Assembly (NCBI GenBank): GCA_965203745.1
Contig: CBDBDK010000001.1
Span: forward strand, 478,180 to 542,179
Origin: an uncultured Candidatus Binatia bacterium
GTDB lineage: Bacteria > Desulfobacterota > Binatia > Bin18
Reading direction: 5' to 3'
Length of the DNA: 64,000 bases
Under the pieces are notes generated by a model. It made no database searches and had not been told where the DNA came from. It was given only the letters and a program-made list of their open reading frames with translations. A program made the translations under genes and the position numbers. Below are positions 10,444-54,998 of this stretch, piece after piece. Numbering within the stretch: position 1 is the stretch's first letter; each line of letters starts with the position of its first letter.

Positions 10444-10492
10444 TGACAGGTGTGCCTCAGGCCGGGACCTCGGCACCGTAAGGGAGAAGAAG

Positions 10493-12784
<2,292 letters not shown>

Positions 12785-14732: not shown

Positions 14733-14752
14733 CCAAACGGAAAGGAGAACGC

Positions 14753-16447: not shown

Positions 16448-16457
16448 GGATACGGGT

Positions 16458-17636: not shown

Positions 17637-17683
17637 ATAAATGCCAACCCCCAACCCCGAATCCCCAGTCCCCCACTAAAGCC

Positions 17684-33183: not shown

Positions 33184-33292
33184 GGCCGAAATCCGTCTGT
33201 CCAGTATCGGCACCATTTTCGGTAAGCGGGTGAAGTAGGAGAATGGGTAGGTATCAAAGCCATCTCTTGGTATGCTGTAGGTGGAGGGTCCG

Positions 33293-33907
33293 ATGACGAA
33301 TGTCCCCACATATGGGCAGAGTCCACCGCTGGTGCTGCATACGCGACCGGCTATCGACATGAGCCCTGAGCAATTCCATGAGTTCTGTTTGCTTAACCGC
33401 GAGTGGCGCATTGAGCGAACCGCCGAGGGAGACCTGCGGATTATGACACCAGCCGGAGGAGGAACGGGCAGTCGGAATGCGCTCATCACATCCATGCTCA
33501 CGACCTGGGCCTTACAAGACGGAACAGGCGTCGCCTTTGACTCTTCCACCGGATTTACCTTGCCGAACGGGGCCACCCGTTCCCCTGATGCCGCCTGGGT
33601 GCAACGCGCCCGCCTGACGGGATTGACTGCCGACCAAAAGGAGAAATTCCTGCCCCTCTGCCCCGACTTTGTGTTGGAATTACGTTCTCCAGCCGATGAC
33701 CTCGGGAGCGGGCAGGGGAAGATGCGGGAATACCTGGACAATGGCGCACAGTTAGGTTGGCTGATTGATCCAGCCACGCGCCAAGTCTACGTCTACCGTC
33801 CGTCTGCCACAGTTGGGTGTGTGGACGATCCGTCCCGTATGTCAGGAGACCCCGAACTTCCCGGCTTTGTGCTGGAACTGACGCCTATTTGGGAACCGCT
33901 GTTTTGA
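33293..33907 (+). CDS. Uma2-family (DUF820) endonuclease
   Basis: MSPEQFHEF...EWRIERTAEGDL...FDSSTGFTLPNG...PDFVLELRSP pattern. Confidence 0.65.
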   Translation: MTNVPTYGQSPPLVLHTRPAIDMSPEQFHEFCLLNREWRIERTAEGDLRIMTPAGGGTGSRNALITSMLTTWALQDGTGVAFDSSTGFTLPNGATRSPDAAWVQRARLTGLTADQKEKFLPLCPDFVLELRSPADDLGSGQGKMREYLDNGAQLGWLIDPATRQVYVYRPSATVGCVDDPSRMSGDPELPGFVLELTPIWEPLF

Positions 33908-36740: not shown

Positions 36741-36767
36741 GTCATGCCGGACGTGATCCGGCATGAC
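36741..36767. repeat. Perfect palindromic hairpin (11-bp stem, 5-nt loop: gtcatgccgga-cgtga-tccggcatgac). Possible terminator for the gene ending at 36843.
   Basis: Read directly. Lies in the intergenic region downstream of the minus-strand gene 36843..37556. No T-run follows it. Confidence 0.45.
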
Positions 36768-36842
36768 GAGACCGGGAGACTGGAGGGCTGGATTCCTGCT
36801 TTCGCAGGAATGACGGACGGCTACACAGAACCGTAATTTGCC

Positions 36843-37556
36843 CTAGGAACGATCAACAGCGACCCATTCACGCTGCATCCGGTCCGAGTGGAGGCCCATG
36901 CGTGGCTTTCGCTCGGGAATAATCTGATAACAGGCGGACTGAGCGGTCCCGAGTCCGCAGAGCGTCTCATAACCGGCTGACTGCTGCCACCGCTGGCAAT
37001 CCGTGGTGCTGCCCCAAGAGCTGAGCAGGACGTAATGCACGGGAGCTTGCTGCGGGACAATGCCGCCGAGTTGGGTAAAGACGTAGGGGGTATGGATGCG
37101 TTCGTTCTTGAGTGCCTCATAGGGCAGGATACCAAAGCTCGCGATGTCCGAGAGTGCGCCGATGACCTGATCGGACTCCGTGTCTGAAAGCGGAGTATCC
37201 CGGAGTAGCATGGTTTCGTTCAAGATAATGCCAGTCGCCGTTTCGTTGTCCGCCAGTATTCGGCCCTTACGGATATAATAGGCAGTCCACCATTTTTCTC
37301 GGGCTTCATCCTGAACCTGCACATGTGCACGGTCGCGCTGCCAGTCTTCCATGGCTTCAAGCGTGTCAAACTTGGCAAAGAAGAGCCACCAGGAAGTGCC
37401 CGCAATCGGCCCGCCATAGGTTTCCCGAAAGCCCGCCTGTGCCACGGCGTGGGGCATGAACTGTTCATGGCGTTTGATGTAGGCGTCCAGGAGTTCCGGG
37501 CGTGGACGAAAGCCGCCTTCGGCAATATGCAGGGTAGAGGGACAATCTTCAGCCAT
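36843..37556 (-). CDS. Hypothetical protein (237 aa)
   Basis: Long ORF, co-directional with its neighbours, with coding-like composition. No motif recognised. Confidence 0.45.
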   Translation of the reverse strand: MAEDCPSTLHIAEGGFRPRPELLDAYIKRHEQFMPHAVAQAGFRETYGGPIAGTSWWLFFAKFDTLEAMEDWQRDRAHVQVQDEAREKWWTAYYIRKGRILADNETATGIILNETMLLRDTPLSDTESDQVIGALSDIASFGILPYEALKNERIHTPYVFTQLGGIVPQQAPVHYVLLSSWGSTTDCQRWQQSAGYETLCGLGTAQSACYQIIPERKPRMGLHSDRMQREWVAVDRS

Positions 37557-37702
37557 GGCGTCCTCCCTTTTTCAGCACCAGAAGTGCTGGGGCGAGTGTA
37601 CTCAGCCGCGATTTGATAGGCAAGCTTGCGAGTGGGATGGTCGACGAAGCTGAAACCCTATAAGAGACCATTTGCAATTCAATTTTACAGAAGGAGAAGG
37701 GC

Positions 37703-39094
37703 GTGAAAGTGGTCATTATCTGGCTGGGAATGGTTGGCCTCTTGGCAGTTTCTCATATTTCTTGGGCGGCCGTCCTGGAAAGCCCGAACCAGGGAGTGAA
37801 CCTGTCAGGTGTTGGTTTTATCTCCGGGTGGAAATGTGATGGAACCAACATCACCGTTACCATTAATGGAGGAGAGCCTCTTCCCGTCGCCATGAACCAG
37901 GAACGAGCGGATCTTATTGAAGTCTGCAAAGGAACTATCCATCACGGGTTTATTATGCAGATCAATTGGGCCAGGCTGGGGGATGGGGAGCACGAAGTGA
38001 TTGCTTATGATGAGGGGGTGGAGTTTGGCCGTGCGGAGTTTGCTGTGGGGACATTGGGTGAGGAATTTCCAAAACATTTAGAACGACGAATCACAGTTGA
38101 TGGATTTCCTTCCCTGAATGAGAAGACAGTGCTTGAGTGGAATGAGAGCACCCAACATTTTGAAGTTGTTACTTTAGAGCCAAGCAGTTTAGCAAATGAA
38201 TATGACGAAGACTTTTGGAACGATTTTAATAGAACTTACTTAGCAGGAGCCCTTTGGAACACAGGGCGTTTATACGCTGAGATTCCGAATGTGAGTAACT
38301 GCCAAGCCGGACAATTAACAGAAGCAGCTAAAAACCGGGCACTGGAGGTAGCCAATCAAATTCGAGCCTTACATGGTTTATCCCCCCTCAGGTATGTCGC
38401 TTTCTATGACAGTCAAATGCAAAAAGCCAGCCTCATTCAAGAAGCAAATAATTATGGGGACCACAATCCCCCTCCCAGTCTTAAATGCTATACCGAAGAA
38501 GGAAGGGAAGGTAGCGCAACAAGTAACATTTCTCTTAGCTCTGCCAACCTTGATCCAGGGGCTCATATCATGCATCTGACGAATGACGCTAATCCCGCAA
38601 ACCTACCCTCTGCTGTAGGGCACCGCCGTTGGATACTCAACCCTTTCACCACCAGCTTTAGTTATGGTCAAGTGGGAAAGTACGCCACACAGAAAGTCAT
38701 TGGCTTCTTACAAGAATATGCCCTTACCCCAAAAATCAATATTAATTTTGTCGCTTTTCCTTATGAAACTTATCCTTCCAATCTCCTTAGGGAGGATCCT
38801 CCATGGAGCTTCAGTATAATCGTAGATAAGAAAAACCTGCAGAACAATCAAGGTGACTTTTTCCGAAATGCAAGCATCACTGTCACACGTGTTTCTGACG
38901 AAGCACAGTTGCCAATTTACAACCGATATACAGACACTGTTGGATATGGATTACCCAACTTTATCAGTTGGCAGGTTGAGGGATGGGAATACGATACTTT
39001 ATACGAAGTGGACATTAAAAATGTCGTACTTAGTGATGGAACCACCAAAGATTATTCCTATTCGGTTTTCATTAAAAAAGAGCACATTGATTAA
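37703..39094 (+). CDS. Secreted protein with CAP/SCP (PR-1-like) domain; low G+C
   Basis: Signal peptide MKVVIIWLGMVGLLAVSHISWA. EVANQIRALHGLSPL and GHRRWILNPFTTSFSYGQVG resemble the CAP HNxxR and GHYTQVVW motifs. Codon usage is A/T-rich, unlike neighbouring genes. Confidence 0.5.
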   Translation: MKVVIIWLGMVGLLAVSHISWAAVLESPNQGVNLSGVGFISGWKCDGTNITVTINGGEPLPVAMNQERADLIEVCKGTIHHGFIMQINWARLGDGEHEVIAYDEGVEFGRAEFAVGTLGEEFPKHLERRITVDGFPSLNEKTVLEWNESTQHFEVVTLEPSSLANEYDEDFWNDFNRTYLAGALWNTGRLYAEIPNVSNCQAGQLTEAAKNRALEVANQIRALHGLSPLRYVAFYDSQMQKASLIQEANNYGDHNPPPSLKCYTEEGREGSATSNISLSSANLDPGAHIMHLTNDANPANLPSAVGHRRWILNPFTTSFSYGQVGKYATQKVIGFLQEYALTPKININFVAFPYETYPSNLLREDPPWSFSIIVDKKNLQNNQGDFFRNASITVTRVSDEAQLPIYNRYTDTVGYGLPNFISWQVEGWEYDTLYEVDIKNVVLSDGTTKDYSYSVFIKKEHID

Positions 39095-39299
39095 AAAGAG
39101 CACAGTTCTCCGAATGCCGCGTCATGTAACGCAAGTTGATTGGCACTGGGATAGAGAACGGCCTCCCTCACCACGATTCCGTCGAGATCGACTCCACGGT
39201 TCATAGTTTGTTCGGATGCACTCAGTTTCGACTTGATGGGCAAGTTTGAGAGTCGGAATATCTCATCCCCTCTTGAAACGTGTGCTGCATATTGTCGCG

Positions 39300-39596
39300 T
39301 TAGCCCCTCCTCGGGGGGCGCCGGCCCCCTCACCCTAGCCCTCTCCCGCTGGGCTCACGGCCCGACAGTTTGACGGAAGCGAGGGCCGGGGGCCGTCCCA
39401 TCCCCTCTTGGGAGGGGTGGCCGAAGGCCGGGGTGGGTTTCTCCGGGCCCATCGGCGTTCCCGAACCCACCCCGCCGCTACGCGGCACCCCTCCAAGGAG
39501 GGGATTTGCTGCGTCCTTCCCCCCCCCCCGGATTCCCGGTCTCGGTGAAACTGTCGTGTACTCAGCCCTCCAAGGGAGAGGGAATGAAAACTGTAG
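39300..39596. repeat. G+C-rich cluster of short hairpins (CCCCTC-ttgg-GAGGGG at 39402-39417; ggggtgggtt...aacccacccc at 39430-39473; CCCCTC-caag-GAGGGG at 39488-39503) plus an 11-nt poly-C tract at 39519-39529
   Basis: Read directly. Non-coding (both track ORFs here are G+C artefacts). Abuts the left end of the IS. Confidence 0.4.
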
Positions 39597-41074
39597 GGGC
39601 AACCCCCTGTGGCATCTGCTCCAACTAATTGAGATGCAGGGTGTGTGGCGTTGGCCTAGAACAAGTACGTTGAGCATATCGAGGAGTGCGGATAAGCACC
39701 AGTTCGGGCGGGGCAGGGAGGATGGACTTGAGCGGTATGTTGGGGGCGCGGATGCGTGTTCTACGCGAAGGTCTAATGAAGCCCAGTTCGCGCCCTCGCT
39801 CCACAAAGATCTTCACAGGGTCTCTGCCTTCGTAGGCATAGCGGGGGGCATACGCCACCAGCAGCCCGATGGACACCTCGAACGGGTCAACTCCGGCCTC
39901 AGAGGCGACCTCAAGCCGCAGGGCCTGGAGCACCTGGGAGATTATCAACGTTGCCCATATCTGTTGTTGGATGACGACCGGCTTGGCCGACCACAGGAGG
40001 CGCAGCTTGAGGTGGTGCTTGACCAAGGCCAGCGCCATCTCAATGTCCCACCGGCGCGCGTAGACCTTGGCCATGGCTCGAAGCGGGAACGTGTGCGGCT
40101 CCCGCACGTTGGTGATATAGCGGCGGAGCGTTCCGCCCTGTCTGAAAGTCACCAGCCGAACGGCATGGCTGGCCCGGTCCGCCCGGTGGGCCCCCAGCCA
40201 CACGAGGCCGTCAAAGACCGCGCCCCGCTCATAGAACACGTGGATAACCTTGTAGCTGGTCTTCGCTCGCAGCCGACTCAGCCAGTAGTACCCCCGGTCG
40301 GTGAGCCAGTCGAACCAGGCGAAGCCGAAGTAGCCTAGGTCTGCTACTACCAGCGCCCCGGCAGGGAGGGCCGCCACCAAGTCTCGCGCGCCCACCTTCG
40401 CGTTTTGGTGGGGGTGAGGCTGAAAGCTGACTCTCCGCCACTGCTGGCGCCTTATGTCGAACACCCCCGCCAGCTTGCCAGGGAGGAGCCGGCTATCGCC
40501 TGCAGGGACCCCTCTCAGCGCGGGCAGCCGCCTCGACACGGCGTCCAGCGTACTCTCGTCTATGCCCACCACCTCCGGGGCGAAGGGGGCCAGCCTCTCG
40601 GAGACCGCGCCCCGCCCTCGCTCTGCCAGCACCGTGCTGATCTGGCCGAAGAGCCGCTCCAGGGGCGCCGTCCCCGCACTCTGGAGCCGCTTATAGACCG
40701 CTTGGTCTGTCACCGGAAATCGGGGGAAGAACCAGAGCCCCCGTTCCGAGATGAGCCGCCAGACTGCCAGTTGGCTCCCAAAGCCGCGCAGGACGCAGAC
40801 CAGCAGGCCCGCCCACAGAGCCATTGCGGGCAGCACGCGGGGCCGGCCAGGCCCCTTATGCGCGTGGTCTGGCTTCATCTCCGCCAAACACTGGCAGAGG
40901 AACTCCTCTATGCTCCCAATGGTGTCTTGTGGATCGTTGACGCGCTTGGCAAATATCGCCACCTCGTGCCTCCTGCAGAGTACTCATCCTCTTGTACTAC
41001 CCCCAGAGGACAACTCAAAGGGAAAACTGGGCCTTGTCCGAATTAGTTGGAGCAGATGCCACAGGGGGTTGCCC
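39597..41074. mobile_element. IS4-family insertion sequence (about 1.48 kb) with perfect 34-bp terminal inverted repeats
   Basis: gggcaaccccctgtggcatctgctccaactaatt at 39597-39630 is the exact reverse complement of 41041-41074. It encloses a single DDE transposase. No flanking target-site duplication is visible. Confidence 0.8.
39625..40962 (-). CDS. IS4-family DDE transposase (DDE_Tnp_1)
   Basis: 445 aa; ADLGYFGF (D-x-G-Y) and YARRWDIEMAL (Y-x2-R-x3-E) IS4 motifs. Confidence 0.85.
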   Translation of the reverse strand: MAIFAKRVNDPQDTIGSIEEFLCQCLAEMKPDHAHKGPGRPRVLPAMALWAGLLVCVLRGFGSQLAVWRLISERGLWFFPRFPVTDQAVYKRLQSAGTAPLERLFGQISTVLAERGRGAVSERLAPFAPEVVGIDESTLDAVSRRLPALRGVPAGDSRLLPGKLAGVFDIRRQQWRRVSFQPHPHQNAKVGARDLVAALPAGALVVADLGYFGFAWFDWLTDRGYYWLSRLRAKTSYKVIHVFYERGAVFDGLVWLGAHRADRASHAVRLVTFRQGGTLRRYITNVREPHTFPLRAMAKVYARRWDIEMALALVKHHLKLRLLWSAKPVVIQQQIWATLIISQVLQALRLEVASEAGVDPFEVSIGLLVAYAPRYAYEGRDPVKIFVERGRELGFIRPSRRTRIRAPNIPLKSILPAPPELVLIRTPRYAQRTCSRPTPHTLHLN

Positions 41075-42619: not shown

Positions 42620-44308
42620 ATGGCCTACGATCTGTTGATCAAAAACGGAACCGTTGTGGATGGCACGGGTGCGGCCCGCTATCGGGCCGATCTTGGGGTG
42701 GCGCAGGGCCGGATCGCTGAAATTGCGCCAACCGGAACACTCAATGAGAACGCCCCCCGCGTTATTGACGCGTCCGATCTGATCGTCGCTCCAGGCTTTA
42801 TTGACCCTCACACCCACTACGACGCCCAGGTCTGCTGGGACCCGCTGATCTCCTGTTCTTCGTGGAATGGGGTGACGAGTGTGGTGATGGGAAACTGCGG
42901 GGTGGGGCTCGCGCCGTGTCTGCCCGAGAAACGGGAGGTACTGGCCTGGGACCTGGTCAATGTGGAGGGGATGTCCTTTGAGGTATTGTCACAGGGAGTG
43001 ACCTGGGAGTGGGAGAGCCTGGCGGATTTCATGGCTGCTCCGTTCCGGACGGGGATGGGAATCAATCTCGGTTTTCTGGTTCCGCTGTCGCCGATTCGCT
43101 CCTACGTCATCGGGGAAGCCGCCCAGGAACGGGCCGCAACGCCTGACGAGATCCAGCGGATTACAACCCTCCTGCGAGAAGGCGTACAGGCTGGGGCACT
43201 CGGCTTTTCCACCACCGTGGCCACGCAGCACGTGGGCTTCAAGGGCCGTCCTCTGGCGTGTCGCCTCGCCAGTCGGGACGAGCTGCGGGCGTATGCAAAT
43301 GTGCTACGCGACCTCGGGCAGGGTGCGATCGAGGTGAACCTGGGAGGCGCCGGATCATCCATCCTGCCCTCGGGCAGTCCCGAGTTGATTGATTTCCTGC
43401 TGGCCGAAAGCCAACGTCCGGTCACTTGGCTGTCGGTGCAAACGCGGAGCGACCAGCCAACCGCGCACCGCGAGCTGCTGACCAATACCGATGGACTGAT
43501 TCAACGCGGGGGGATTCCTCAGGCGAGTTGCCAACCTACAGAGCTCCAGTTCAATCTGCGCAATCCCTTTATCCTGGGCGCGTATGACGTGTGTCACTCC
43601 CTGTTTAACTGTAGCGCTGAGGAACAGGCGCGAATCTATGCCGACCCGATTTTCCGGGCGGCGTTCCGGGCGGCGTGCACGGCAACGCCCAAAGCCTTCA
43701 GCGGCCAGTGGCAGCAGACCCAGGTGTGCAAGGTCGGCAAACCAACGCATCAGGCGTGGCTGGGGAAGAGCATCGCAGAGCTGAGTCAGCAAGCCGGCAC
43801 CGACCCCTTTGACACCTTTTTCGATCTGGCCCTGGCCGACGATCTGGCGACCGAGTTCTCCCTGGCCATGCTGAATTTTGATCTCGACCTGGTTGAGGAA
43901 GTCATTACGGACCCGCGCGTATTGATCGGCTTGTCGGACGGCGGGGCGCATGTCGATATGCTGTGTAATGCCGGCTATCCGACCTATCTGCTGGGGACCT
44001 GGGTGCGCAGGCGTCAGGCCATGAGTCTGGAACGCGCGGTACAGCGCATCACCTCCGAACCGGCCCAGCTTTTTGGGGTGTTGGATCGGGGCGTGATTGC
44101 AGCCAGTAAAGCTGCGGACTTTGTGGTCTTCGATCCCGACACGGTTGATGCCGGGGAAAAAGTGATGCTGAACGATCTGCCGGGCGGGGAGCGACGCTTC
44201 GTGCAACGCGCCGAAGGCATACACTACGTCGTGGTGAACGGGGAGGTCGTGCTCACTCAGGGCGAGCACTCCGGCGCGCTGCCGGGGCAGATGCTGCGTG
44301 CGGGTTGA
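42620..44308 (+). CDS. N-acyl-D-amino-acid deacylase (D-aminoacylase)-family amidohydrolase
   Basis: MAYDLLIKNGTVVDGTG...APGFIDPHTHYD and a C-terminal DADFVVFD are typical of this family. Confidence 0.8.
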   Translation: MAYDLLIKNGTVVDGTGAARYRADLGVAQGRIAEIAPTGTLNENAPRVIDASDLIVAPGFIDPHTHYDAQVCWDPLISCSSWNGVTSVVMGNCGVGLAPCLPEKREVLAWDLVNVEGMSFEVLSQGVTWEWESLADFMAAPFRTGMGINLGFLVPLSPIRSYVIGEAAQERAATPDEIQRITTLLREGVQAGALGFSTTVATQHVGFKGRPLACRLASRDELRAYANVLRDLGQGAIEVNLGGAGSSILPSGSPELIDFLLAESQRPVTWLSVQTRSDQPTAHRELLTNTDGLIQRGGIPQASCQPTELQFNLRNPFILGAYDVCHSLFNCSAEEQARIYADPIFRAAFRAACTATPKAFSGQWQQTQVCKVGKPTHQAWLGKSIAELSQQAGTDPFDTFFDLALADDLATEFSLAMLNFDLDLVEEVITDPRVLIGLSDGGAHVDMLCNAGYPTYLLGTWVRRRQAMSLERAVQRITSEPAQLFGVLDRGVIAASKAADFVVFDPDTVDAGEKVMLNDLPGGERRFVQRAEGIHYVVVNGEVVLTQGEHSGALPGQMLRAG

Positions 44309-44365
44309 GAGCCGAGCCGGAGCGTTGCCCGACGATCAATCGTCAGCGCGCGGCAAGGAGGGCGC

Positions 44366-45430
44366 ATGAAATTCGCTATTCTCTATAACACCGACTATTA
44401 CCCCGACATCCACGGCTCGGCCGAGCAGTATTATAACCATATTCTGGAACAGGTCGAACTGGAGGAAGAACTCGGCTTTGACGCGGTCTGGTTTGGCGAG
44501 CACCACTACTCGGGCTATTCGTTCGGGTCGCCGCCGGTCATGGCTATGGCGGCCGCCGGCCGGACCAAACGCATTCGGCTCGGGACCGGCATCTCCCTGG
44601 TGCCACTCAATAATCCTATCCGACTGGCCGAAGAGTACGCCATGGTCGATGTGCTCTCCGGCGGCCGTCTGGAGTACGGCATCGGTAGAGGTTTTCTGAA
44701 ATACTCGCATAAAATTTTTGGCGTGGACGAAGCGGAGAATACCGAGCGCTATCACGAGGGGACGGATATTATCTGTCAAGCCTGGACGAGTACGCAGCCC
44801 TTCTCGTATCGCGGCAAATTCTGGGAACTCGAAGACTACACGTTTTTCCCCAGCCCCTTACAAAAGCCCCACCCGCCCATTTACGCTTCCGGGGCGATTA
44901 CGCCCGAGAGTTATCAGTGGGCCGGTCAGCGGGGCTTTCATTTGGCGACCGCCTTTTTCCTCCCCAACCAGGAACACGTCCAGGAGTGTATCGGCCTCTA
45001 CCGTCAAGCGCTCCGGGAAAACAACCATGAGCCGGCCACCCGTGATGTCGCTGGCGTGTATCAGATGTATTGTGGTGAATCGAACGAAGAAGCCCGGCGC
45101 AACGGCGGTCAGCACGCGCTGACGTACTATGCCTTCTTTGGGGCCCTGGCCCAGCGTGGCGCCTTAACCTCTCAGTCGTTCGCCTACCACAAAGGAACGA
45201 TCTCGCATCTCTTTGCCGGGCTGACCTTCGAAGACCTGGACAAGCGCAACTTGGTCCTGGTTGGCGACCCGGATAATCTGATTGAGCGTATCCGCTGGGC
45301 CAAAGAGTTCTACGGTACGAACTATCTGATTCTTGAAATCGCCCAAGGCGGCATGAAGCACGAACATGTCATGCCCTCGCTCGAACGCTTTGCCAAATAT
45401 GTCATGCCCGTATTTCGGGATGAGGAATGA
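44366..45430 (+). CDS. LLM-class flavin/F420-dependent oxidoreductase
   Basis: LGFDAVWFGEHH...GRLEYGIGRG. Confidence 0.8.
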   Translation: MKFAILYNTDYYPDIHGSAEQYYNHILEQVELEEELGFDAVWFGEHHYSGYSFGSPPVMAMAAAGRTKRIRLGTGISLVPLNNPIRLAEEYAMVDVLSGGRLEYGIGRGFLKYSHKIFGVDEAENTERYHEGTDIICQAWTSTQPFSYRGKFWELEDYTFFPSPLQKPHPPIYASGAITPESYQWAGQRGFHLATAFFLPNQEHVQECIGLYRQALRENNHEPATRDVAGVYQMYCGESNEEARRNGGQHALTYYAFFGALAQRGALTSQSFAYHKGTISHLFAGLTFEDLDKRNLVLVGDPDNLIERIRWAKEFYGTNYLILEIAQGGMKHEHVMPSLERFAKYVMPVFRDEE

Positions 45431-45599
45431 GGTATCTCCTCCTCAAAGGGGCGGCGCGTGAGCGCCGGGGTGGGCTCCCTCTCCTCCCGGTCTCTTGCTA
45501 TATGCCCCTAAAATATGAAAGAGTCGGTGCATCCGCCTGCCAGCGGTACGGGCGGGGCAATCTCAAACCGTAAGAACGAGGAAAAAGGGAGGACTGCAT

Positions 45600-46895
45600 A
45601 TGCATATTATGTCTTTCTCGGAACGTGAATACGTCGATGTCTCCGAGGATGCAATCATCGAAAACGGGAGTAGCTATTTTGGCCTTCCCAATACGATGTT
45701 TGATGCCGACCGGGGCGGCCAGCTCATGAATGAATATCTGGACGAGCGGATCTACGCCGAAGAGCTGGGCTTTGACGGTGTCATGCTCAACGAGCACCAC
45801 CAGACCCCGTTTTGTGGTGGTGGGGTCATGGATGTGGAAGCCGCTATTCTGGCCCGGATCACCAAGCGGGTGAAAATTGTCCTGCTCGGCAACCCCCTCC
45901 CGGTGGGCGATCCGCTGCGACTGGCGGAAGAGCTGGCCACGATTGATATGATTTCCGGTGGCCGTCTGGTACCGGGCTGGGTGCGTGGTGCGGGCACGGA
46001 ACAACTCGCCAATAACATCAACCCGGCCTACAATCGGGAGCGCTTTAACGAAGCCCATGACTTTATTCAACAGGCGTGGACGAAGCCGGGACCGTGGCGT
46101 TACGAGGGCAAACACTATCACTACCGAAACGTCAATCCCTGGCAGTTGCCGGTTCAGAAGCCGGTGCCGCAACAGTGGATTCCGGGGTTGATCAGCCCGG
46201 AAACCGTCATCTGGAGCGCTAAACATCGCTATCCCTATGTGGCGCTCGGCACCAATGTCGAATCCACGGTTGAGATGGTGAATCTGTACGCCGATGTCGC
46301 CGAGCAGGAAGGCTATCAGGCCGGACCGGAGAACTTCGGTTATCTGCAGAACGTGTGTGTGGCCGAGACGGAGGAGAAGGCGCATGAGTTGGCCCGGGGC
46401 TTTGTCTTTGGCGGTGGATTCGGCTCGTTTGCCCGTGCCGAGTGGATGTTTCCTCCGGGATATAACTCCAAGGCCGCAACCAAGCGTCTGGCGCAAGCCC
46501 TGACCGATCCGCGCACCGGCGCCGAAATCATCAAGCATACTCAGGGTGAGATTGACGTCGAAGAAATCAAGCGGAGCATTGAATCGGGTTTCCAGGCCTC
46601 GCTCGACAGCGATCTGATTATGGCCGGTACACCGGAGACGGTCATGAAAAAGCTGCGGAAAATGTGCGAAACCCTCCGACCCGGTATCATGGGCCTGTGG
46701 TATCACCACGGTCCGATGAGTTTCGAGCAGCGTAAGACCTGCCTGCGTCTGCTTGGCCAGGAAGTCCTGCCGGCCATGCGTGAGATGGCCAAAGAGCTCG
46801 ACCTGCCCGGACCGTTTGAGGTAACGCCGGGTTCGCGGTCGCTGCCGGCCTCCGGCAAGCGCGAACAGATCGTGCCCGATATCGCCGCGGCTTAA
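45600..46895 (+). CDS. LLM-class flavin/F420-dependent oxidoreductase
   Basis: LGFDGVMLNEHHQ...GGRLVPGWVRG; GGGAGG RBS. Confidence 0.8.
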   Translation: MHIMSFSEREYVDVSEDAIIENGSSYFGLPNTMFDADRGGQLMNEYLDERIYAEELGFDGVMLNEHHQTPFCGGGVMDVEAAILARITKRVKIVLLGNPLPVGDPLRLAEELATIDMISGGRLVPGWVRGAGTEQLANNINPAYNRERFNEAHDFIQQAWTKPGPWRYEGKHYHYRNVNPWQLPVQKPVPQQWIPGLISPETVIWSAKHRYPYVALGTNVESTVEMVNLYADVAEQEGYQAGPENFGYLQNVCVAETEEKAHELARGFVFGGGFGSFARAEWMFPPGYNSKAATKRLAQALTDPRTGAEIIKHTQGEIDVEEIKRSIESGFQASLDSDLIMAGTPETVMKKLRKMCETLRPGIMGLWYHHGPMSFEQRKTCLRLLGQEVLPAMREMAKELDLPGPFEVTPGSRSLPASGKREQIVPDIAAA

Positions 46896-46922
46896 GGCGC
46901 GGCTCAGATTAGACAACGAAAC

Positions 46923-46956
46923 AGGGGCGGTCCGAAGGACCGCCCCTTTCTTTTTT
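46923..46956 (+). terminator. Rho-independent terminator
   Basis: aggggcggtcc-gaa-ggaccgcccct stem followed by TTCTTTTTTC. Confidence 0.7.
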
Positions 46957-46980
46957 CAGGACGGAATTGTCGGCACGGCC

Positions 46981-47061
46981 TTTAGTGAAAGCCCATGAGG
47001 CTATGATAATAATCCCAGTAGCCACGAATGGCGCTCTCGGTTAAGAGATTCTCCTGATTCT
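46981..47061. repeat. 81-bp direct repeat, copy A (a duplicate of the 3' end of the Rieske oxygenase gene)
   Basis: Identical at all 81 positions to 49562-49642. Confidence 0.9.
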
Positions 47062-47117
47062 GTTTTTCTGTGCTACTGATTAGCACTGACACACCGAATA
47101 ACAGTGCAGGGCAACCC

Positions 47118-47432
47118 ATGCTGAGATTAACCGATCAGGAAAAGCAGGAGATTCTCCGATTTCTGGAAGCAGACCGGGAATTACCGGAGAAATACCGTTT
47201 CCTGCTATTCAAGGACAAGCGCGAGGTCGAGTTGGTCTGGAACGGCAAGACCAACGAGGTCTGCAATATCGTACTGCCGTTTCAGACTATTGAGCATGTC
47301 GACGAGCCACGGGCGGAGAAGCCACAAGACACCAAGGCTCAGATGGCGCTCTTCGATGAACGGGGCCGACAACTGCGAGGCTGGACCAATAAACTCAAAA
47401 GGTGGTGGATATCTTCGGCAATGACACCATGA
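47118..47432 (+). pseudogene. N-terminal fragment of an N6-adenine DNA methyltransferase (type III Mod / type IIG-like)
   Basis: VELVWNGKTNEV and GWTNKL match the conserved LxWxGK ... NxLIxGDN N-terminal blocks of these MTases. The ORF stops after 105 aa, before any catalytic DPPY/NPPY region. Confidence 0.4.
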
Positions 47433-47451
47433 CGATTGTGGAGGTATCGGT

Positions 47452-48324
47452 GTGAGGTTCGTCCTGCCGACAATCCGGCACAACCGGAGAGGGTTTGCGG
47501 CGCTCGCGACCCTTCATGCGCAAACCGAGCACTGTTTTGTCGATGATGTCGAGATCGACATGCGGTCAACGAACCGGTTCGACGGCGATATGTGCGCAGC
47601 GTTTGGCGCGATTCTGTACAGCCTGGGAGCCAGTCTGAATACCATCAGTTTGACGAATATCAATTCCAAAGTAGAGAAGATTCTTTCTAAAAACGGCTTC
47701 CTCAGCCACTATGGAGGACAGGAAATGCCCAACCTTCGGGAAACGGCCGATTTCTACGAACGATTCGACATTGGGGACGACCGCTATTTCTCCGCTTATA
47801 TTGAGCGTGGGCTTATCCGTCGTCCTGAAGTGCCAGAGATGTCCGCAGGGTTATTAAAAAAGTTCCGCGAGAGCATCTTCGAGATCTTCAGCAATGCCGT
47901 GCTACACTCTCGCACTGAACTGGGCATTTTCAGTTGTGGACAGTTTTTTCCCGACAGGAACCGACTCGATTTTACTGTGGCCGATCTGGGTATCGGTATC
48001 CGAAAGAATATCTACAACAGTCTCCAGCAAGACTTGTCTCCGGTGGACGCCATCATCTGGGCGACTCAGGAGCACAATACGACCAAACGTGGTAGAGTTC
48101 CCGGTGGACTGGGGCTAACGCTGCTTAGCGAGTTCATCGACCTGAACGGCGGCTGTATTCGGATAGTGTCTGACGCTGGATATTGGCGGCGCAAAAACAA
48201 GCGGACCAAGACGGCTCTATTGGACCAGCCATTTCCAGGGACAGTCGTTAGCGTGGAAATCAACACAGCGGACGACCGCTCTTACAGACTCATTTCAGAA
48301 TTCGAAGATGACGAAATCTTCTAA
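47452..48324 (+). CDS. GHKL-superfamily (histidine-kinase-like / RsbW-like) ATPase
   Basis: N box FSNAVLHS, G1 box VADLGIGI, G2 box GGLGLTL. Confidence 0.65.
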   Translation: MRFVLPTIRHNRRGFAALATLHAQTEHCFVDDVEIDMRSTNRFDGDMCAAFGAILYSLGASLNTISLTNINSKVEKILSKNGFLSHYGGQEMPNLRETADFYERFDIGDDRYFSAYIERGLIRRPEVPEMSAGLLKKFRESIFEIFSNAVLHSRTELGIFSCGQFFPDRNRLDFTVADLGIGIRKNIYNSLQQDLSPVDAIIWATQEHNTTKRGRVPGGLGLTLLSEFIDLNGGCIRIVSDAGYWRRKNKRTKTALLDQPFPGTVVSVEINTADDRSYRLISEFEDDEIF

Positions 48325-48334
48325 GGGATTTCCC

Positions 48335-48700
48335 ATGAGCACAGACGTTGCAGTATCCATATTCGAGGTCGTCGGGAGCCCCTTATGTGTCGCATCGGGC
48401 GATGGCCAGAAGGTACACGACCGTATCGCCGCCTTATTGGAACAAGACCAGCGTGTCTTGCTCTCGTTCCGTAATGTGTCCACGCTGACATCGGCATTTC
48501 TCAACACGGCGATCGGCCAATTATATGGCACCTTCACCGAAGACCGGATTCGGGCTTTACTGACGGTGAAAGACATGGAAGCCGATGATGTTGCCCTGTT
48601 AAGGCGGGTTGTTGATACGGCCAAGCGATACTTTCAAGACCCGGAGAGATTCAACAATGTGGTGCGGGATGTGCTGGAGGATGACGGCGATGGCACATAA
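48335..48700 (+). CDS. STAS-like (DUF4325-like) small protein
   Basis: About 120 aa; VLLSFRNVSTLTSAFLNTAIGQLY pattern; AGGGA RBS 8 nt after the upstream stop. Family assignment is from memory and tentative. Confidence 0.45.
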   Translation: MSTDVAVSIFEVVGSPLCVASGDGQKVHDRIAALLEQDQRVLLSFRNVSTLTSAFLNTAIGQLYGTFTEDRIRALLTVKDMEADDVALLRRVVDTAKRYFQDPERFNNVVRDVLEDDGDGT

Positions 48701-49223
48701 CGTTTCACATGTCGAGCGTTACGACTTCACGTCCGGGGATGCATTATTTTTAGATACCAATATCTGGTTATTTATCTACGGCCCACAAGACCCCGCTAGC
48801 ACTCAAATGTATGCATACTCCTCGGCGTTTCGTCACATCCTGGAAGCGCAAAGCCGTATCTATATCGATGCTCTTGTCATTTCGGAATTTATTAACGCCT
48901 ACGCTCGGCAGCAATGGCACCTTGTTGCACCCAATACGAGGTTCAAGGAGTTCCGCAACAGTCCACGCTTCAAGCCGGTCGCTCGAGAAATAGCCGACAA
49001 TACCAAGCGAGTGCTGAACCACTGCTCGCGGGTCGAAAGTCACTTTGAGACGTTGGACGTAGATGGCTTGATGAACGAGTATGCGGAGGGCGGTGCCGAT
49101 TTTAATGACCAGGTTATCAGGGAGTTGTGTAACAGCCGAGGCTTGAAGCTGGTCACAGATGACGGCGATTTCGATGGGCAAGGAATATCCATAATAACAG
49201 CAAACAGGCGCTTATTGGGCTGA
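48690..49223 (+). CDS. PIN-domain nuclease
   Basis: LFLDTNIWLF (first catalytic Asp), further acidic positions, C-terminal LVTDDGDF. The ATG overlaps the upstream stop (ATGGCACATAA). Confidence 0.7.
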   Translation: MAHNVSHVERYDFTSGDALFLDTNIWLFIYGPQDPASTQMYAYSSAFRHILEAQSRIYIDALVISEFINAYARQQWHLVAPNTRFKEFRNSPRFKPVAREIADNTKRVLNHCSRVESHFETLDVDGLMNEYAEGGADFNDQVIRELCNSRGLKLVTDDGDFDGQGISIITANRRLLG

Positions 49224-49227
49224 TTCC

Positions 49228-49506
49228 ATGGCGCTGCATATCGACTTCCCCGATTCTCCCCATACCATTCTTGACCCCGAGCTTCGTTGGTTTCCCGCGG
49301 ATGAAACTCTGCGTGCGACGGGCTCTGGGCCGAAAACGCCACTGATGGTGGAGGTCGATAACGACAATACAATTAAGGACATCGACGCCTTGGATATTGA
49401 GATTCCGATACTGACGCCGCGAGCCTATCGAGAATATAAGCATCTGTTTTTGTCGATGACGTTGGGTTTGAAAAGTATAAGCCCAAGACCTTTGACGCGC
49501 TATTAG
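49228..49506 (+). CDS. Hypothetical small protein (92 aa), the last gene of the cassette operon
   Basis: Starts 4 nt after the PIN stop. No motif recognised. Confidence 0.3.
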   Translation: MALHIDFPDSPHTILDPELRWFPADETLRATGSGPKTPLMVEVDNDNTIKDIDALDIEIPILTPRAYREYKHLFLSMTLGLKSISPRPLTRY

Positions 49507-49561
49507 CCGGGTTTCGCGATTATCAATCAGACGTGGCAGAGTGACGGGTTTCCAATGCAGA

Positions 49562-49642
49562 TTTAGTGAAAGCCCATGAGGCTATGATAATAATCCCAGT
49601 AGCCACGAATGGCGCTCTCGGTTAAGAGATTCTCCTGATTCT
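49562..49642. repeat. 81-bp direct repeat, copy B (the genuine 3' end of the Rieske oxygenase gene)
   Basis: Reverse complement translates to ...NQENLLTESAIRGYWDYYHSLMGFH*. Confidence 0.9.
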
Positions 49643-50822
49643 CTCTTCCCGTACCACCGAAGGCGAGCAGGGAGCATTCGTCCTTTTCCTGGGCGATAGC
49701 CTGTTGGACCAATTCGGTGGCGTAGCCATCTTCCATGGAGATGTAGCCGGCCGGACCGACCAGATTGGCCTGCTTGATGCGGATGCGGCGGATTTCTTCG
49801 TCATCATCTTCATAGCCAAAGAATGTAAATAACAGTTCAAACTGATCCGGTCCCTTGGGCAGAATATGTCGGGTTGCCAGCGTGTTTTGAATCTGCTGGA
49901 CGACCAGGCACGGAAAAATCATCTGGATGTGATTGGTTAATTCCACCTCGAATTCTTTGCGCGAGGTGAGGAGCGAGGGGTCGGCTAAGGTGTAGTCCGT
50001 CTGGTAACTGCGGATGTTCTTGCCCGTGTAGGCGGCCACCTCTTCCTGTTCCGTCTTTTTATACGCGCGCAGCATGCTGTGGCGGCCCGCCGCGTCCATA
50101 ATGACCCCACCCCCTTGGGACGAACGATAGATACCAAAAGTGGTGTGAAAAAGGTGCAGCAGACTGGCGTGATAGGGGTCTTTGACATTCTCCGAGTAGA
50201 GTTTCCAGTTGGCATGAACGAACTGGCGGGCGTAGCCCAGCACCTGGACCGGTCGGTTGAAGACCCGGTCGAGCCACGGCCGCATGGCCGGGCCCAGATA
50301 GTCGGCCAGCGGTTCAACCTCGGAAGAAAAGGAGGCAAAGATCAGCCCGTTATAGGTATCCACGCGTAGTTTACGGAGGGAGTGCTGGGCGAGATCAAAG
50401 TCCGCCGGGTACCCGCCCTGGCGGCGAATGCCGGTCCGAAACGGAACCCCAATCAGATCGCCCTGCTGGTTATAACTCCACTGGTGGTAGATGCAGGTAT
50501 GGGTGGCCCGATTACCCCGAGACTCGCGACACACCAGTGCCCCGCGATGCGCGCACCGATTCACAAAGGCGTGCAGCTTCCCCGCTTTGTCGCGCGATAC
50601 GACGACGGGCGTGGCGCCGACAAAGGTGGAGCGGAAATCGCCGGGGTTGGCAACCTCCGCTTCGAGCCCTACATAGCTCCAGGTTGGACCTCTGAAGATG
50701 CGTTCTTGTTCCAGGTTGTAGACGGCAGGATCGCAAAAGACCTGATACGGGACTGAGGTTATCCCCGCTGTCGTCGGCCATCTCAACGCGACGGGCGCAT
50801 TGTCCATGGGTGAAAGGCTCAT
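49563..50822 (-). CDS. Rieske non-haem-iron aromatic-ring-hydroxylating oxygenase, alpha subunit
   Basis: CAHRGALVC...CIYHQWSY Rieske CxH...CxxH motif. Start at MSLSPMDNAP, with an AAGGAGG RBS. Confidence 0.85.
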   Translation of the reverse strand: MSLSPMDNAPVALRWPTTAGITSVPYQVFCDPAVYNLEQERIFRGPTWSYVGLEAEVANPGDFRSTFVGATPVVVSRDKAGKLHAFVNRCAHRGALVCRESRGNRATHTCIYHQWSYNQQGDLIGVPFRTGIRRQGGYPADFDLAQHSLRKLRVDTYNGLIFASFSSEVEPLADYLGPAMRPWLDRVFNRPVQVLGYARQFVHANWKLYSENVKDPYHASLLHLFHTTFGIYRSSQGGGVIMDAAGRHSMLRAYKKTEQEEVAAYTGKNIRSYQTDYTLADPSLLTSRKEFEVELTNHIQMIFPCLVVQQIQNTLATRHILPKGPDQFELLFTFFGYEDDDEEIRRIRIKQANLVGPAGYISMEDGYATELVQQAIAQEKDECSLLAFGGTGRENQENLLTESAIRGYWDYYHSLMGFH

Positions 50823-50971
50823 CCTGGCACCTCCTTGATAAGCGCTTTTCTCCTCCCACTTCCTCTCCCTAGTAGACACTGGTTTGTGTCGATTGACAAG
50901 CCATATTTGAGGCGCGTATACGAGGAGCAGGGATGCTGTCCCAACAGGCTCTGGGAGAAAAGGGAGGACCT

Positions 50972-51229
50972 ATGAGTGCGCAAAGCTTGAACATCATGCT
51001 GGTTGACCTGTTTCGATCCGAGACGGAGTTGGCCCGGTACCAGCAAGACCCCGAGGTCATTCTGGCAAACTACGATGTCACGGACGAAGAGCGGACGCGA
51101 CTCAAAGACCCAGACTGGGGGTGGCTCTATACGCACGGGATTCATCCCTACATTCTGGTCCAGTTTGCCTTAGCCATGGGGGTAGAGATCCCGCAGTATG
51201 TGCAGCAGGTGAAAGAAGCGGCCGGGTAG
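50972..51229 (+). CDS. LigA-like small subunit of extradiol (class III) dioxygenase
   Basis: About 85 aa, immediately upstream of the LigB-like gene. GGGAGG RBS. Confidence 0.45.
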   Translation: MSAQSLNIMLVDLFRSETELARYQQDPEVILANYDVTDEERTRLKDPDWGWLYTHGIHPYILVQFALAMGVEIPQYVQQVKEAAG

Positions 51230-51275
51230 GGCGGCCAACTCGAAGACCCGTCAAACGAGAAAAAAGGAGAACCAG

Positions 51276-52097
51276 ATGGCGAATATCGTTGCAGCCATGT
51301 CGTCAGTTCACAGTCCCCTGATGATGAGTGCGCCCCAGATGGCGGATGAGGCCACCTGGGGAAGGATCAATACGGGCTTCGATACCCTCCGAGACACCTT
51401 CACTGCTGCTGGAGCCGATACGATCGTCGTTATCTCAGACGAACATTTTAATGCGCTCGACCCGCGCCGCTATCCGTCGTTTGGTGTGGTGACGGCTGAG
51501 ACGAGCGTCGGCCCGGTCGAAAACTGGCTCGGCGTGCCCTGCAATAGCATCTCGGTCAATTTCGAGCCGGAGCTGGCCGAAGCGGTCCTCGACGAGGGGG
51601 TCCGCCAAGGCTTCGATTTGACGCGGATTGGCGAAGTCGGTTTAGACCATGGCTTTCTGACCTGCCTGAACTTTCTTACGCCGCAGTGGGACATGTCCTA
51701 TCTGTGGCTGATCCAGAACTGTGTCCTGCCGCCCCTGCCGAGCCTCAGGCGGTGTTATGATTTCGGGCGGATGGTCGGGCAAGCCATCCGGTCGTGGGAC
51801 AGCTCCCGCCGCGTGGCTCTGCTCGGCACGGGTGGCTTGTCGCATGCGGTTGGCACGCCGGATATGGGCAAGGTGGATGCACACTTCGATAAAAAATTCC
51901 TCGATCTCCTGTGCCAACACGACCCGGCCATGTTCGATATCACGGATGCGGAGATTGATGCGGTCGGCAACGGCACGCACGAGATCCGGAACTGGATTGC
52001 GGTGGCTGGGGCGGTCGAAGGCGCACAAGGCGAAGTCGTCATGTATGAAGAAGGAACCATGGTCGTAGGCTTCGGCATGATGCAGTTCCAACTGTAA
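51276..52097 (+). CDS. LigB-family class III extradiol ring-cleavage dioxygenase catalytic subunit
   Basis: 273 aa; IVVISDEHF...HGF...GTGGLSH pattern. Confidence 0.7.
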   Translation: MANIVAAMSSVHSPLMMSAPQMADEATWGRINTGFDTLRDTFTAAGADTIVVISDEHFNALDPRRYPSFGVVTAETSVGPVENWLGVPCNSISVNFEPELAEAVLDEGVRQGFDLTRIGEVGLDHGFLTCLNFLTPQWDMSYLWLIQNCVLPPLPSLRRCYDFGRMVGQAIRSWDSSRRVALLGTGGLSHAVGTPDMGKVDAHFDKKFLDLLCQHDPAMFDITDAEIDAVGNGTHEIRNWIAVAGAVEGAQGEVVMYEEGTMVVGFGMMQFQL

Positions 52098-52109
52098 AGT
52101 CCATTCCGC

Positions 52110-52169
52110 GAAGAGGAAATGTCTCCAGCATCTCGTCGCTATGGAAGGAGACGTTTCCTCTTTAGTTCG
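52110..52169. repeat. Palindromic hairpin repeat element, copy 1 (about 17-bp inverted arms gaagaggaaatgtctcc / ggagacgtttcctcttt with a 20-nt spacer)
   Basis: About 56 bp, near-identical to 54939-54998 in the same orientation. Confidence 0.75.
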
Positions 52170-52170
52170 G

Positions 52171-53052
52171 ATGAGTGGAGCCAGGCCGCGTGGAACGCTC
52201 GCTGTTCTGGGTGTGGGCATCCTCGCCATCTCGACGGCTGCGCCGCTGATAAAACTTGTCCCCGACGTCCCGCCGCTCGTGGTGGCCGCCTTTCGGCTCG
52301 GTCTCGCCGCGCTGATATTCACCCCGCTGAGCCTCGTCCGGCTCCAGACCGCCGGTGGCTCACTCTCGCTTCCTGACCTGCGGGTGGTGAGCGTGGCCGG
52401 TCTGTGTCTGGCACTCCACTTTGCCGCCTGGATTGCCTCGCTCCGCTACACCTCTGTGGCGAGTTCCGTGGCACTGGTGACCATAAATCCACTCCTACTC
52501 GCCCTCGCCGGCTATCTCATCTGGCGAGAGCGTCTCGTCCGGCGTCAATGGTTGGGGATTGGCTTGGCATTACTCGGCAGCCTGTGCATCGGCTGGAACG
52601 ATTTTCAGCAGGCAGGTCCGGCCCGAGAGTCCGCGCTGTACGGCGATGGCTTAGCCGTATGCGGTGCGGTCATGATATCCGCCTACCTGCTGTGTGGCCG
52701 CTTTGCCCGACCGCGTCTCGGCCTGAGCGTGTATGTCGGGCTGGTCTATGGGTGTGCGGCGGTTCTCTTACTCGTCGGCTGTTTTGTCCTCCAACTGCCG
52801 CTGCTGGGCTATGCCCCATGGGTCTACCTCGTTCTGGTCCTGCTTGCCCTTATCCCCCAAGTGTTGGGCCATACCATTCTGAACTGGGCGCTGGCCTATA
52901 TGTCTCCGACACTGGTCGCACTGGCGATTCTCGGCGAACCGCTTGGAGCTGCCCTGCTGGCCTGGATATTTCTTAACGAGTCAGTGGGCCTGCTCCAAGG
53001 GATAGGGGCGGTGGGCCTGCTGACGGGGATTGTGCTGGGACAGCAACGCTGA
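52171..53052 (+). CDS. DMT-superfamily (EamA-like) transporter
   Basis: 10 hydrophobic segments and two EamA-like halves. Start taken at MSGARPRG, just after the repeat element; the track start at 52141 lies inside the element. Confidence 0.7.
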   Translation: MSGARPRGTLAVLGVGILAISTAAPLIKLVPDVPPLVVAAFRLGLAALIFTPLSLVRLQTAGGSLSLPDLRVVSVAGLCLALHFAAWIASLRYTSVASSVALVTINPLLLALAGYLIWRERLVRRQWLGIGLALLGSLCIGWNDFQQAGPARESALYGDGLAVCGAVMISAYLLCGRFARPRLGLSVYVGLVYGCAAVLLLVGCFVLQLPLLGYAPWVYLVLVLLALIPQVLGHTILNWALAYMSPTLVALAILGEPLGAALLAWIFLNESVGLLQGIGAVGLLTGIVLGQQR

Positions 53053-54921: not shown

Positions 54922-54938
54922 ACTTCCCTCCTTGCTGT

Positions 54939-54998
54939 GAAGAGGAAACATCTCCAGCATCTCGTCGCTATGGGAGGAGACGTTTCCTCTTTGATTCG
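54939..54998. repeat. Palindromic hairpin repeat element, copy 2
   Basis: Same about 56-bp sequence as copy 1, with 3 substitutions. Confidence 0.75.

Follow-up and report, generated by a model that had tools for sequence, protein, structure and literature searches.

A repeat-flanked island at the 3′ end of a Rieske oxygenase gene in Candidatus Binatia, a probable relic of an integrase-free restriction-modification insertion

Here, we describe a repeat-flanked island in the genome of an uncultured Candidatus Binatia bacterium. The whole stretch of DNA analysed, hereafter the window, comprises 64,000 nucleotides (NCBI GenBank assembly GCA_965203745.1, contig CBDBDK010000001.1, positions 478,180 to 542,179). 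Within it, a segment of 2,500 bp (the cassette) lies between two direct repeats that duplicate the 3′ end of a gene for the alpha subunit of a Rieske non-haem iron oxygenase. Judged from its sequence, the cassette is the remains of a restriction-modification (R-M) operon of Type III and not a functional R-M system. We consider it likely that the island is the eroded relic of an R-M insertion that needed no integrase and that generated a long target duplication.

Genes and repeats at the locus

The island is situated between the Rieske gene and a gene for a luciferase-like monooxygenase (LLM; Table 1). Its two direct repeats are identical at 81 of 81 positions, and the window has no third copy of this 81-mer even at up to three mismatches; shuffled sequences are expected to contain none. 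Alignment and gene coordinates agree here with a preliminary description of this DNA, which had reported the repeats as perfect, the right copy as the genuine end of the Rieske gene, and the left copy as an orphan. The orphan sits between the terminator of the LLM gene (46923-46947) and the cassette. It is adjoined by the native downstream flank and that terminator, an arrangement that matches genomes in which the site is empty.

Weaker similarity runs on for 18 nt beyond the 81-mer on its element-proximal side (47062-47079 versus 49643-49660; 11 of 18 positions, p ~0.0025), and the homologous unit is thus about 99 nt long. This extension points toward the cassette interior at the left copy and into the Rieske gene at the right copy. 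The degenerate continuation of the orphan shows that the original duplication was ~99 nt. There are no terminal inverted repeats at the cassette ends, and a promoter-like motif that occurs within both repeat copies is no more frequent there than expected by chance.

Relatives of the locus were retrieved by scanning with the Rieske protein, using one genome per species. This placed the window among the uncultured Candidatus Binatia and yielded 17 orthologous loci, all of which conserve the LigAB-Rieske-LLM synteny; exact-sequence look-ups of the window ATPase and Rieske proteins retrieved no record, and the Rieske orthologues share 90-96% amino acid identity across 16 Binatia genomes. One locus, from a related Candidatus Binatia (L016), carries a 6.8-kb insert with the same two junctions as the window. 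The open reading frames (ORFs) of this insert encode a Mod of 770 aa (N6_N4_Mtase), an ATP-binding protein of 290 aa, a STAS-like protein (DUF4325, 121 aa), a PIN protein of 204 aa, and an 897-aa Res with a ResIII helicase and a C-terminal TnsA-like endonuclease. Both Mod and Res are intact in L016. The middle three genes of L016 are equal in length to those of the window.

In blastn comparison, the cassette maps to L016 11286-18124 as four colinear blocks of 85-88% identity. The blocks are separated by three gaps, one of 1928 bp in mod (L016 15879-17806) and two of 1605 and 777 bp in res (L016 12358-13962 and 11465-12241), which remove 4.3 kb in total. Because this alignment is colinear apart from the deletions, the ORF at 47070-47432 can be recognized as a mod remnant and that at 49228-49506 as a patchwork of res pieces. 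The window thus has no intact N6/N4 methyltransferase: only the first 93 and the last ~17 codons of mod are left, without any Pfam match. Beyond the deletion junction near 47398, the 5′ remnant continues out of frame to a stop at 47432, and the stop codon of the 3′ remnant overlaps the GTG start of the ATPase gene (GTGTGA). Nor is there an intact ResIII helicase/endonuclease, since res survives as three short, frameshifted fragments.

The G+C content of the segment between the repeats (47062-49561) is 0.516, whereas the window as a whole has 0.584 and each flank 0.59. This value falls below the 5th percentile of the window's 2.5-kb windows, yet it is not the lowest of them. The preliminary description had counted five interior genes of lower G+C; the lower G+C is confirmed, but only three of the five ORFs are intact, the outer two being the mod and res remnants.

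A perfect palindrome, GTGCTA-CTGAT-TAGCAC, is found at 47070-47086, ~30 nt 5′ of the mod start. The degenerate repeat extension ends within it, and L016 keeps the motif with one loop base changed. This palindrome may be a candidate operator or regulatory site for the operon.

Table 1. Coordinates of the island, its surroundings, and segments at related loci (positions in the window unless a locus is named)
Feature	Position	Strand	Description
Bidirectional terminator hairpin	46923..46947		Conserved in L001, L014, L016
Left direct repeat	46981..47061		Orphan copy: last ~25 Rieske codons, stop, and 1 further base
Degenerate orphan continuation	47062..47079		11/18 to gene; mismatches mostly G>A transitions
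mod 5′ remnant	47118..47396	+	Codons 1-93; 85% nucleotide identity to L016 17808-18086
mod 3′ remnant	47399..47455	+	Last ~17 codons, ...VVDIFGNDTMTIVEVSV*; matches the L016/L015 Mod C-terminus
GHKL (Bergerat-fold) ATP-binding protein	47452..48324	+	290 aa, intact; C-terminal half SpoIIAB-like; HATPase_c below Pfam cut-off
STAS-like DUF4325 protein	48335..48700	+	121 aa, intact; ATG at 48335, ORF opens at 48308; PF14213, E=8.7e-16
PIN-domain nuclease	48690..49223	+	Intact; ORF opens at 48609, likely start near 48690; PF01850, E=7e-9
res remnants	49228..49543	+	N-terminal ~29 codons, ~40-codon internal piece, C-terminal ~30 codons; frameshifts
Right direct repeat	49562..49642		Functional Rieske 3′ end
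Rieske non-haem iron oxygenase alpha subunit	49563..50879	-	Target gene, intact; Rieske and Ring_hydroxyl_A domains
Paralogous Rieske duplications	L019:11099-12279, L027:11153-13463, L029:7005-9613, L030:11096-13242, L080:11096-12474
Cation-diffusion-facilitator segments	L004:11319-11683, L005:11318-11544, L007:11319-11508, L008:11319-12398, L011:3695-4049, L012:11304-12408

Empty sites and variant islands in related genomes

Eight related species (L001, L002, L003, L006, L009, L010, L014, and L032) carry a single repeat copy, to which the native flank joins directly, with the terminator and the LLM gene beyond it. The preliminary description had proposed a search for such empty sites, and the LLM-terminator-Rieske arrangement with one copy of the repeat that it anticipated is the one present, colinear with the predicted excision product. 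Deleting one 81-mer and the cassette from the window in silico gives a product of 820 nt, which aligns end to end with seven of the eight empty sites (L010 was left out of this comparison) at 86-92% identity and with 0-3 gaps.

The repeat could in principle be an assembly artefact of a metagenome-assembled genome (MAG), produced by a mis-join or by a consensus that was collapsed or duplicated. The related genomes are themselves MAGs, and assembly errors can yield perfect short repeats. The same architecture is nevertheless found in the independently assembled L016, where the repeat copies are diverged, and the cassette and its flanks are colinear with relatives at every junction. An artefact is thus extremely improbable.

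Two further loci are occupied at the same chromosomal site by a different cargo. In L015 (12025-13783) and L013 (13940-15924), the three middle genes, hereafter the triad, are replaced between mod and res by two genes encoding an AAA_15/AAA_21 ATPase of 443 or 469 aa and a ~190-aa protein without family assignment. L015 has a truncated res gene, and in L013 mod and res alike are in fragments. Yet another gene lies between mod and res in L140. Because these cargos differ from the triad, the mod-res junction behaves as an exchangeable slot.

The L015 island has two other peculiarities. Its Mod (928 aa; L015:13780-16566) contains an in-frame DUF559 (Vsr-like endonuclease) domain near residues 630-740, bracketed by repeated proline/glycine-rich peptides such as SGGKPGSL; it resembles an insertion element the size of a domain within mod. 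In addition, its orphan repeat (L015:16577-16714) is mostly replaced by a G+C-rich palindromic sequence of the GGGCGGG...CCCGCCC type. Recombination between the repeats can therefore no longer remove the L015 island.

Extra segments of 190-1,110 bp at the site in L004, L005, L007, L008, L011, and L012 were considered as possible island remnants and rejected, as they derive from a cation-diffusion-facilitator gene. This gene lies beyond the native flank, between the Rieske and LLM genes; it is intact in L012 and frameshifted or fragmentary in the other five. Neither the window nor the empty-site genomes have it.

Age of the insertion and identity of the repeats

The gene-side junction of the island (stop codon, one base, and then TCTGCATTGG...) is common to the window, L016, and L015, and it is present in a diverged form in the basal L013. 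The orphan-side junction, including the degenerate 18-mer, is common to the window and L016, with one difference in the 18-mer. Among the window, L016, and L015, the 5′ parts of mod are 85-88% identical and the flanking genes 89-90%. Synonymous divergence (dS) is 0.33-0.44 for the cargo, versus 0.51-0.56 for the Rieske and LLM genes. Divergence of the element thus follows divergence of the host, which indicates that the insertion predates the split of these species.

A neighbour-joining tree of three genes of the locus scatters the occupied genomes: L013 branches at the base, L016 has the empty L014 as its sister, and the window falls inside the empty L001/L002/L006 group. Since element and host co-diverge, we interpret this distribution as an ancestral insertion, followed either by repeated precise loss via the repeats or by the spread of empty alleles through homologous recombination.

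The two repeat copies of L016 are 77% alike over 99 nt, and the orphan of L015 is largely overwritten. Both copies in the window carry TAC for TAT, as well as AGC in the serine codon of ...YYH-S-LMGFH. These variants occur in none of the 17 orthologous gene ends, nor are they in the L016 orphan. Furthermore, identity between the window copies falls abruptly to 11/18 at the edge of the 81-mer. An old and unconstrained orphan thus shares the private substitutions of the functional copy along a tract that ends abruptly where divergence becomes dense, and recent gene conversion, with the functional gene end as donor and the orphan as recipient, is the best explanation of the 81/81 identity. Given the co-divergence, the 77% similarity of the L016 copies, and the shared private single-nucleotide polymorphisms (SNPs), the perfect identity of the repeats is not evidence of recent integration.

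A recent event of another kind would also produce 81/81 identity with sharp edges. A circle looped out in this or a very close strain, bearing one repeat of 81-99 bp, might have re-entered through a single RecA-mediated crossover of the Campbell type. The loop-out product does equal the empty sites, and there are related loci with tandem cargo units split by res-5′/mod-3′ fusion fragments, with 94-100% repeats, a layout that integration of circles would be expected to leave. However, the cassette is 13% diverged from its nearest sampled copy, in step with the host, so the donor would have to be of essentially the same lineage. Both copies also carry private SNPs, and a crossover with a foreign circle would still require conversion. 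We therefore judge recent re-entry to be quite unlikely, and retain an old insertion with converted repeats as the preferred account.

A similar duplication is seen at a second Rieske gene. In five genomes, a paralogous Rieske gene (78-82% amino acid identity) is accompanied by an orphan duplicate of its 3′ end, 175-205 nt long and 0.8-2.2 kb downstream. The boundaries at this paralogous locus are fixed, with the same left boundary in all five genomes, while the cargo varies: VapBC-like, HicAB-like, and BrnA-like genes, an NnrU-like membrane protein gene, and an IS200-like Y1 transposase gene. The two copies within one genome are 90-98.5% alike (98.5% in L019) and share private variants. This pattern indicates that the paralogous repeat copies, too, evolve in concert.

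Origin of the island

We propose the following course of events. In the ancestor of this Candidatus Binatia clade, a five-gene operon of 6.8 kb (mod, the SpoIIAB-like GHKL ATPase gene, the DUF4325 gene, the PIN gene, and res) would have inserted one base after the Rieske stop codon, duplicating ~99 bp of the gene's 3′ end and bringing no recombinase gene. This is a step that we infer. The decay of mod and res, by contrast, is evident in the window, where three illegitimate deletions totalling 4.3 kb destroyed the two genes. Finally, recombination of the RecA type between the repeats would delete the island precisely and leave an intact Rieske gene; the product of such loss is seen directly in relatives, while its mechanism is again one that we infer. 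Type III Res depends on Mod (PMC2853133), and the R-M system could therefore erode without death of the host. The triad outlived mod and res because it forms an autonomous module.

R-M insertion with a long duplication of the target is on record for all R-M types (Furuta, Abe & Kobayashi 2010, Nucleic Acids Research (NAR) 38:2428, PMC2853133). Table 3 of that survey lists Type III cases with direct repeats from Campylobacter jejuni (208/208 and 98/107), and the survey calls the mechanism unknown, proposing that double-strand breakage is involved (PMC2853133). The island studied here resembles this class in several ways. The insert contains R and M homologues (complete in L016, colinear remnants in the window), is shorter than 20 kb (2,500 bp in the window, ~6.8 kb in L016), and has a G+C content unlike that of the host. 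The direct repeat exceeds 30 bp, overlaps the 3′ end of a neighbouring gene, and is single-copy at the uninterrupted site of the eight related genomes. There is no integrase or transposase in the insert. Insertions of this style are said to have been described also by Nobusato et al. 2000. The window differs from the class in that its R-M genes are largely deleted while three embedded non-R-M genes survive, and in that the insertion is not a strain polymorphism but ancient and common to different species, with repeats seemingly kept identical by conversion. Binatota, moreover, lies outside the earlier survey (PMC2853133).

The alternative is a decayed integrase-dependent island, in which an attP that carried the Rieske 3′ end would have generated attL and attR, with the integrase lost early or acting in trans. 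Duplication of a gene's 3′ end as a direct repeat is the textbook mark of att sites, the window, L016, and L015 have the same junction positions, and the 18 nt beside the orphan resemble a diverged piece of gene borne by the element. As in attL/attR islands at the 3′ ends of tRNA or protein genes, the repeats rebuild the end of the target, the island is absent in relatives, and its G+C deviates. That a paralogous Rieske gene was struck in the same region is also what a sequence-specific recombinase would be expected to do.

Unlike such islands, however, no version of this one has a recombinase. Neither integrase nor transposase is present in the window cassette or in the L016, L015, and L013 variants, and no integrase is found in any of the four occupied orthologous and five occupied paralogous loci. 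A scan of window ORFs of at least 180 aa across the 64 kb likewise found no integrase. Profile searches of the cassette ORFs bear out the statement in the preliminary description that no integrase or recombinase lies between the repeats. Viral contigs were scanned with the Rieske C-terminal fragment for a possible attP, and none contained it. Neither the window nor the related loci that were examined contain tRNA genes, except for two unrelated tRNA-Gln genes in L119, and an Rfam search over 44000-52500 gave no match. The repeat boundaries also differ between the paralogues (99 nt versus ~200 nt), so that no common core site is evident, and a bare R-M operon matches the integrase-free class of Furuta et al. 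We therefore regard an integrase-dependent origin as unlikely. Of the attL/attR integration put forward in the preliminary description, insertion at the Rieske 3′ end stands, and recombination by an integrase finds no support. Its reading of a decayed integrative element likewise gives way to that of a decayed Type III R-M operon, a class known without mobility genes.

The sole transposase among the scanned window ORFs is of the IS4-type DDE family (39625-40962, minus strand), 6 kb outside the repeats. It was rejected as the cause of the insertion because it lies outside the repeats and because transposases of this type make no such duplication.

Several observations weigh against an integrase-free R-M insertion with target duplication. 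Only one ancestral insertion event can be inferred, which leaves the original mechanism unreadable; a target duplication and a gene end borne by the element are both possible. The homologous five-gene operons L090 and L097, which occupy other contexts and have adequate flanks, show no long flanking repeats within 3 kb, and this R-M family is thus not demonstrably mobile by this route. A third such operon, L087, has only a weak repeat of 71%, 1-2 kb away. The duplication at the paralogous Rieske gene hints at a site preference, which a model of random long target duplication does not predict. This recurrence keeps a site-preferring process alive as a rival, either an integrase acting in trans or re-entry of a circle by the Campbell route. 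Given the scattered occupancy, vertical inheritance requires several independent precise losses or the spread of an empty allele by recombination, and the tree itself is built on three genes of the locus only. Lastly, gene conversion is deduced from sequences and was not observed.

If an old R-M insertion is accepted, a signature like that of attL and attR has here arisen without an integrase, and perfect identity of repeats is a poor guide to recency. The class of R-M mobility with long target duplication would extend to the uncultured phylum Binatota. The related genomes would document a full life cycle, with the operon intact, the genes in the mod-res interval exchanged, the operon eroded, or the island precisely lost.

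The conserved triad

The three middle genes are intact and under purifying selection, with ratios of nonsynonymous to synonymous substitution (dN/dS) against L016 of 0.30 for the ATPase, 0.21 for the DUF4325 protein, and 0.15 for the PIN protein. The N, G1, and G2 boxes of the ATPase (N148, D178-x-G-x-G, and G218-G-L-G) are invariant across homologues. Its AlphaFold2 (AF2) model has a predicted local distance difference test (pLDDT) score of 95, and the closest folds in the PDB are those of SpoIIAB, including complexes with the STAS protein SpoIIAA. Sequence-only PDB searches gave only a marginal match to a histidine kinase. The DUF4325 gene always follows the ATPase gene in related loci, and the likely start of the PIN gene overlaps the DUF4325 stop. 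The acidic residues D24, E68, D142, D160, and D162 of the PIN domain are conserved and are intact in the window.

A metagenome scan with the ATPase retrieved 80 loci, and all 80 keep the triad as a unit. Roughly half of them have it between homologous mod and res genes, with the mod stop overlapping the ATPase start; in others, it stands alone amid unrelated genes. The same scan found no close relative (the best matches have 54-71% amino acid identity) and no sister copy of the island. The ATPase family comprises ~1,000 clusters at 50% identity (E <=1e-10). No system model in PADLOC-DB v2 matched the cassette: the ATPase had a weak partial match to DrmA (E=8.5e-4), and the other four ORFs had none. 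Nor did the searchable literature yield a functional description of the triad.

Distant homologues of the triad, annotated as ATP-binding, STAS-like, and PIN proteins, are found on plasmid P5 of Deinococcus gobiensis (L161; NC_017806.1 39983-41829). In the Streptococcus prophage Javan172 (L162; MK448860.1 1891-3169), a two-gene form, consisting of the ATPase and a small protein, lies with the integrase on one side and the repressor region on the other, where prophages typically carry exclusion genes.

At three other loci (L143:1-3103, L085:1444-3646, and L100:1-2271), the triad is followed by a res-mod fusion fragment, a second cargo, and a full res gene. The fusion fragment joins res codons 1 to ~52-65 to the last ~50-60 codons of mod. 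Direct repeats bracket these units, formed by the mod 3′ end (106 nt at 100% identity and 132 nt at 92%) and the res 5′ end (150 nt at 94%). This arrangement suggests cargo exchange or tandem integration via the conserved mod-3′ and res-5′ segments.

By analogy with known partner-switching proteins, the triad probably represents a toxin-type module, perhaps for addiction, or one for abortive infection, with a SpoIIAB/SpoIIAA-like pair that would keep a PIN RNase under control. The likeness consists of a GHKL domain whose nearest modelled fold is SpoIIAB and an adjacent STAS-like gene. Unlike SpoIIAB, the window ATPase has an extra N-terminal domain of ~120 aa, and the third partner is a PIN nuclease; the three-gene unit includes neither a sigma factor nor a PP2C phosphatase.

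The EcoprrI Type Ic R-M locus embeds the PrrC anticodon nuclease. It shares with the islands described here the presence of an RNase-type effector gene within an R-M operon, and by this analogy the triad might be a latent back-up toxin, possibly guarding the R-M system as PrrC does for EcoprrI. The differences are that the window system is of Type III rather than Type I, that its nuclease is a PIN rather than a HEPN-like protein, that two regulator-like genes are added, and that the triad also occurs without R-M genes. Should the triad indeed guard or back up R-M systems, PrrC/EcoprrI would have a Type III counterpart in it.

PIN nucleases coupled to DUF4325 have been classified as the PIN.4 group (2017, PMC5499597). 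In agreement with the group's entry, the window PIN gene overlaps the DUF4325 gene and encodes a VapC-like PIN of ~180-200 aa with conserved acidic residues (PMC5499597). In contrast, the entry itself includes neither an upstream GHKL ATPase nor a frequent position between mod and res (PMC5499597).

Insertion of R-M genes between flanking repeats was already known, and the uncharacterised triad and its cargo slot are the more novel part of these findings. We tentatively raise a broader scheme, which we hold to be possible though doubtful. In this scheme, the triad would be an autonomous defence or addiction module that habitually occupies the mod-res slot of one Type III R-M family and outlives the R-M genes around it when these decay. 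Repeats of Rieske 3′ ends would act as landing pads, free of integrase and driven by RecA, at which defence and toxin-antitoxin cargo is swapped, looped out, and homogenized at two paralogous genes.

Other features of the window

A second direct repeat, of 70 nt and 87% identity, is present at 52100-52169 and 54929-54998. It contains a long hairpin (AAGAGGAAA(T/C)(G/A)TCTCC ... GGAGACGTTTCCTCTT) and brackets genes for an EamA transporter, a Bax1-I protein, and an esterase. Possible identities are a repeated palindromic element and a shared regulatory site.

The lowest G+C of the window, 0.498 over 2.5 kb, is found at 36751-40962. Two ORFs with weak or no family matches (36843-37556 and 37703-39094) adjoin the IS4-type transposase gene there, and this region is probably another acquired segment. 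A gene for a putative restriction endonuclease of the Uma2 family (33281-33907) stands alone amid metabolic genes.

Two tandem TonB-dependent receptor genes at 8194-12784 share ~80% identity over long stretches, a sign that a gene was duplicated in tandem. The region at 13758-20965 encodes NurA, a 564-aa protein without a Pfam match that is possibly HerA-like, an Mre11-like metallophosphoesterase, and a Rad50/SbcC-like ATPase.

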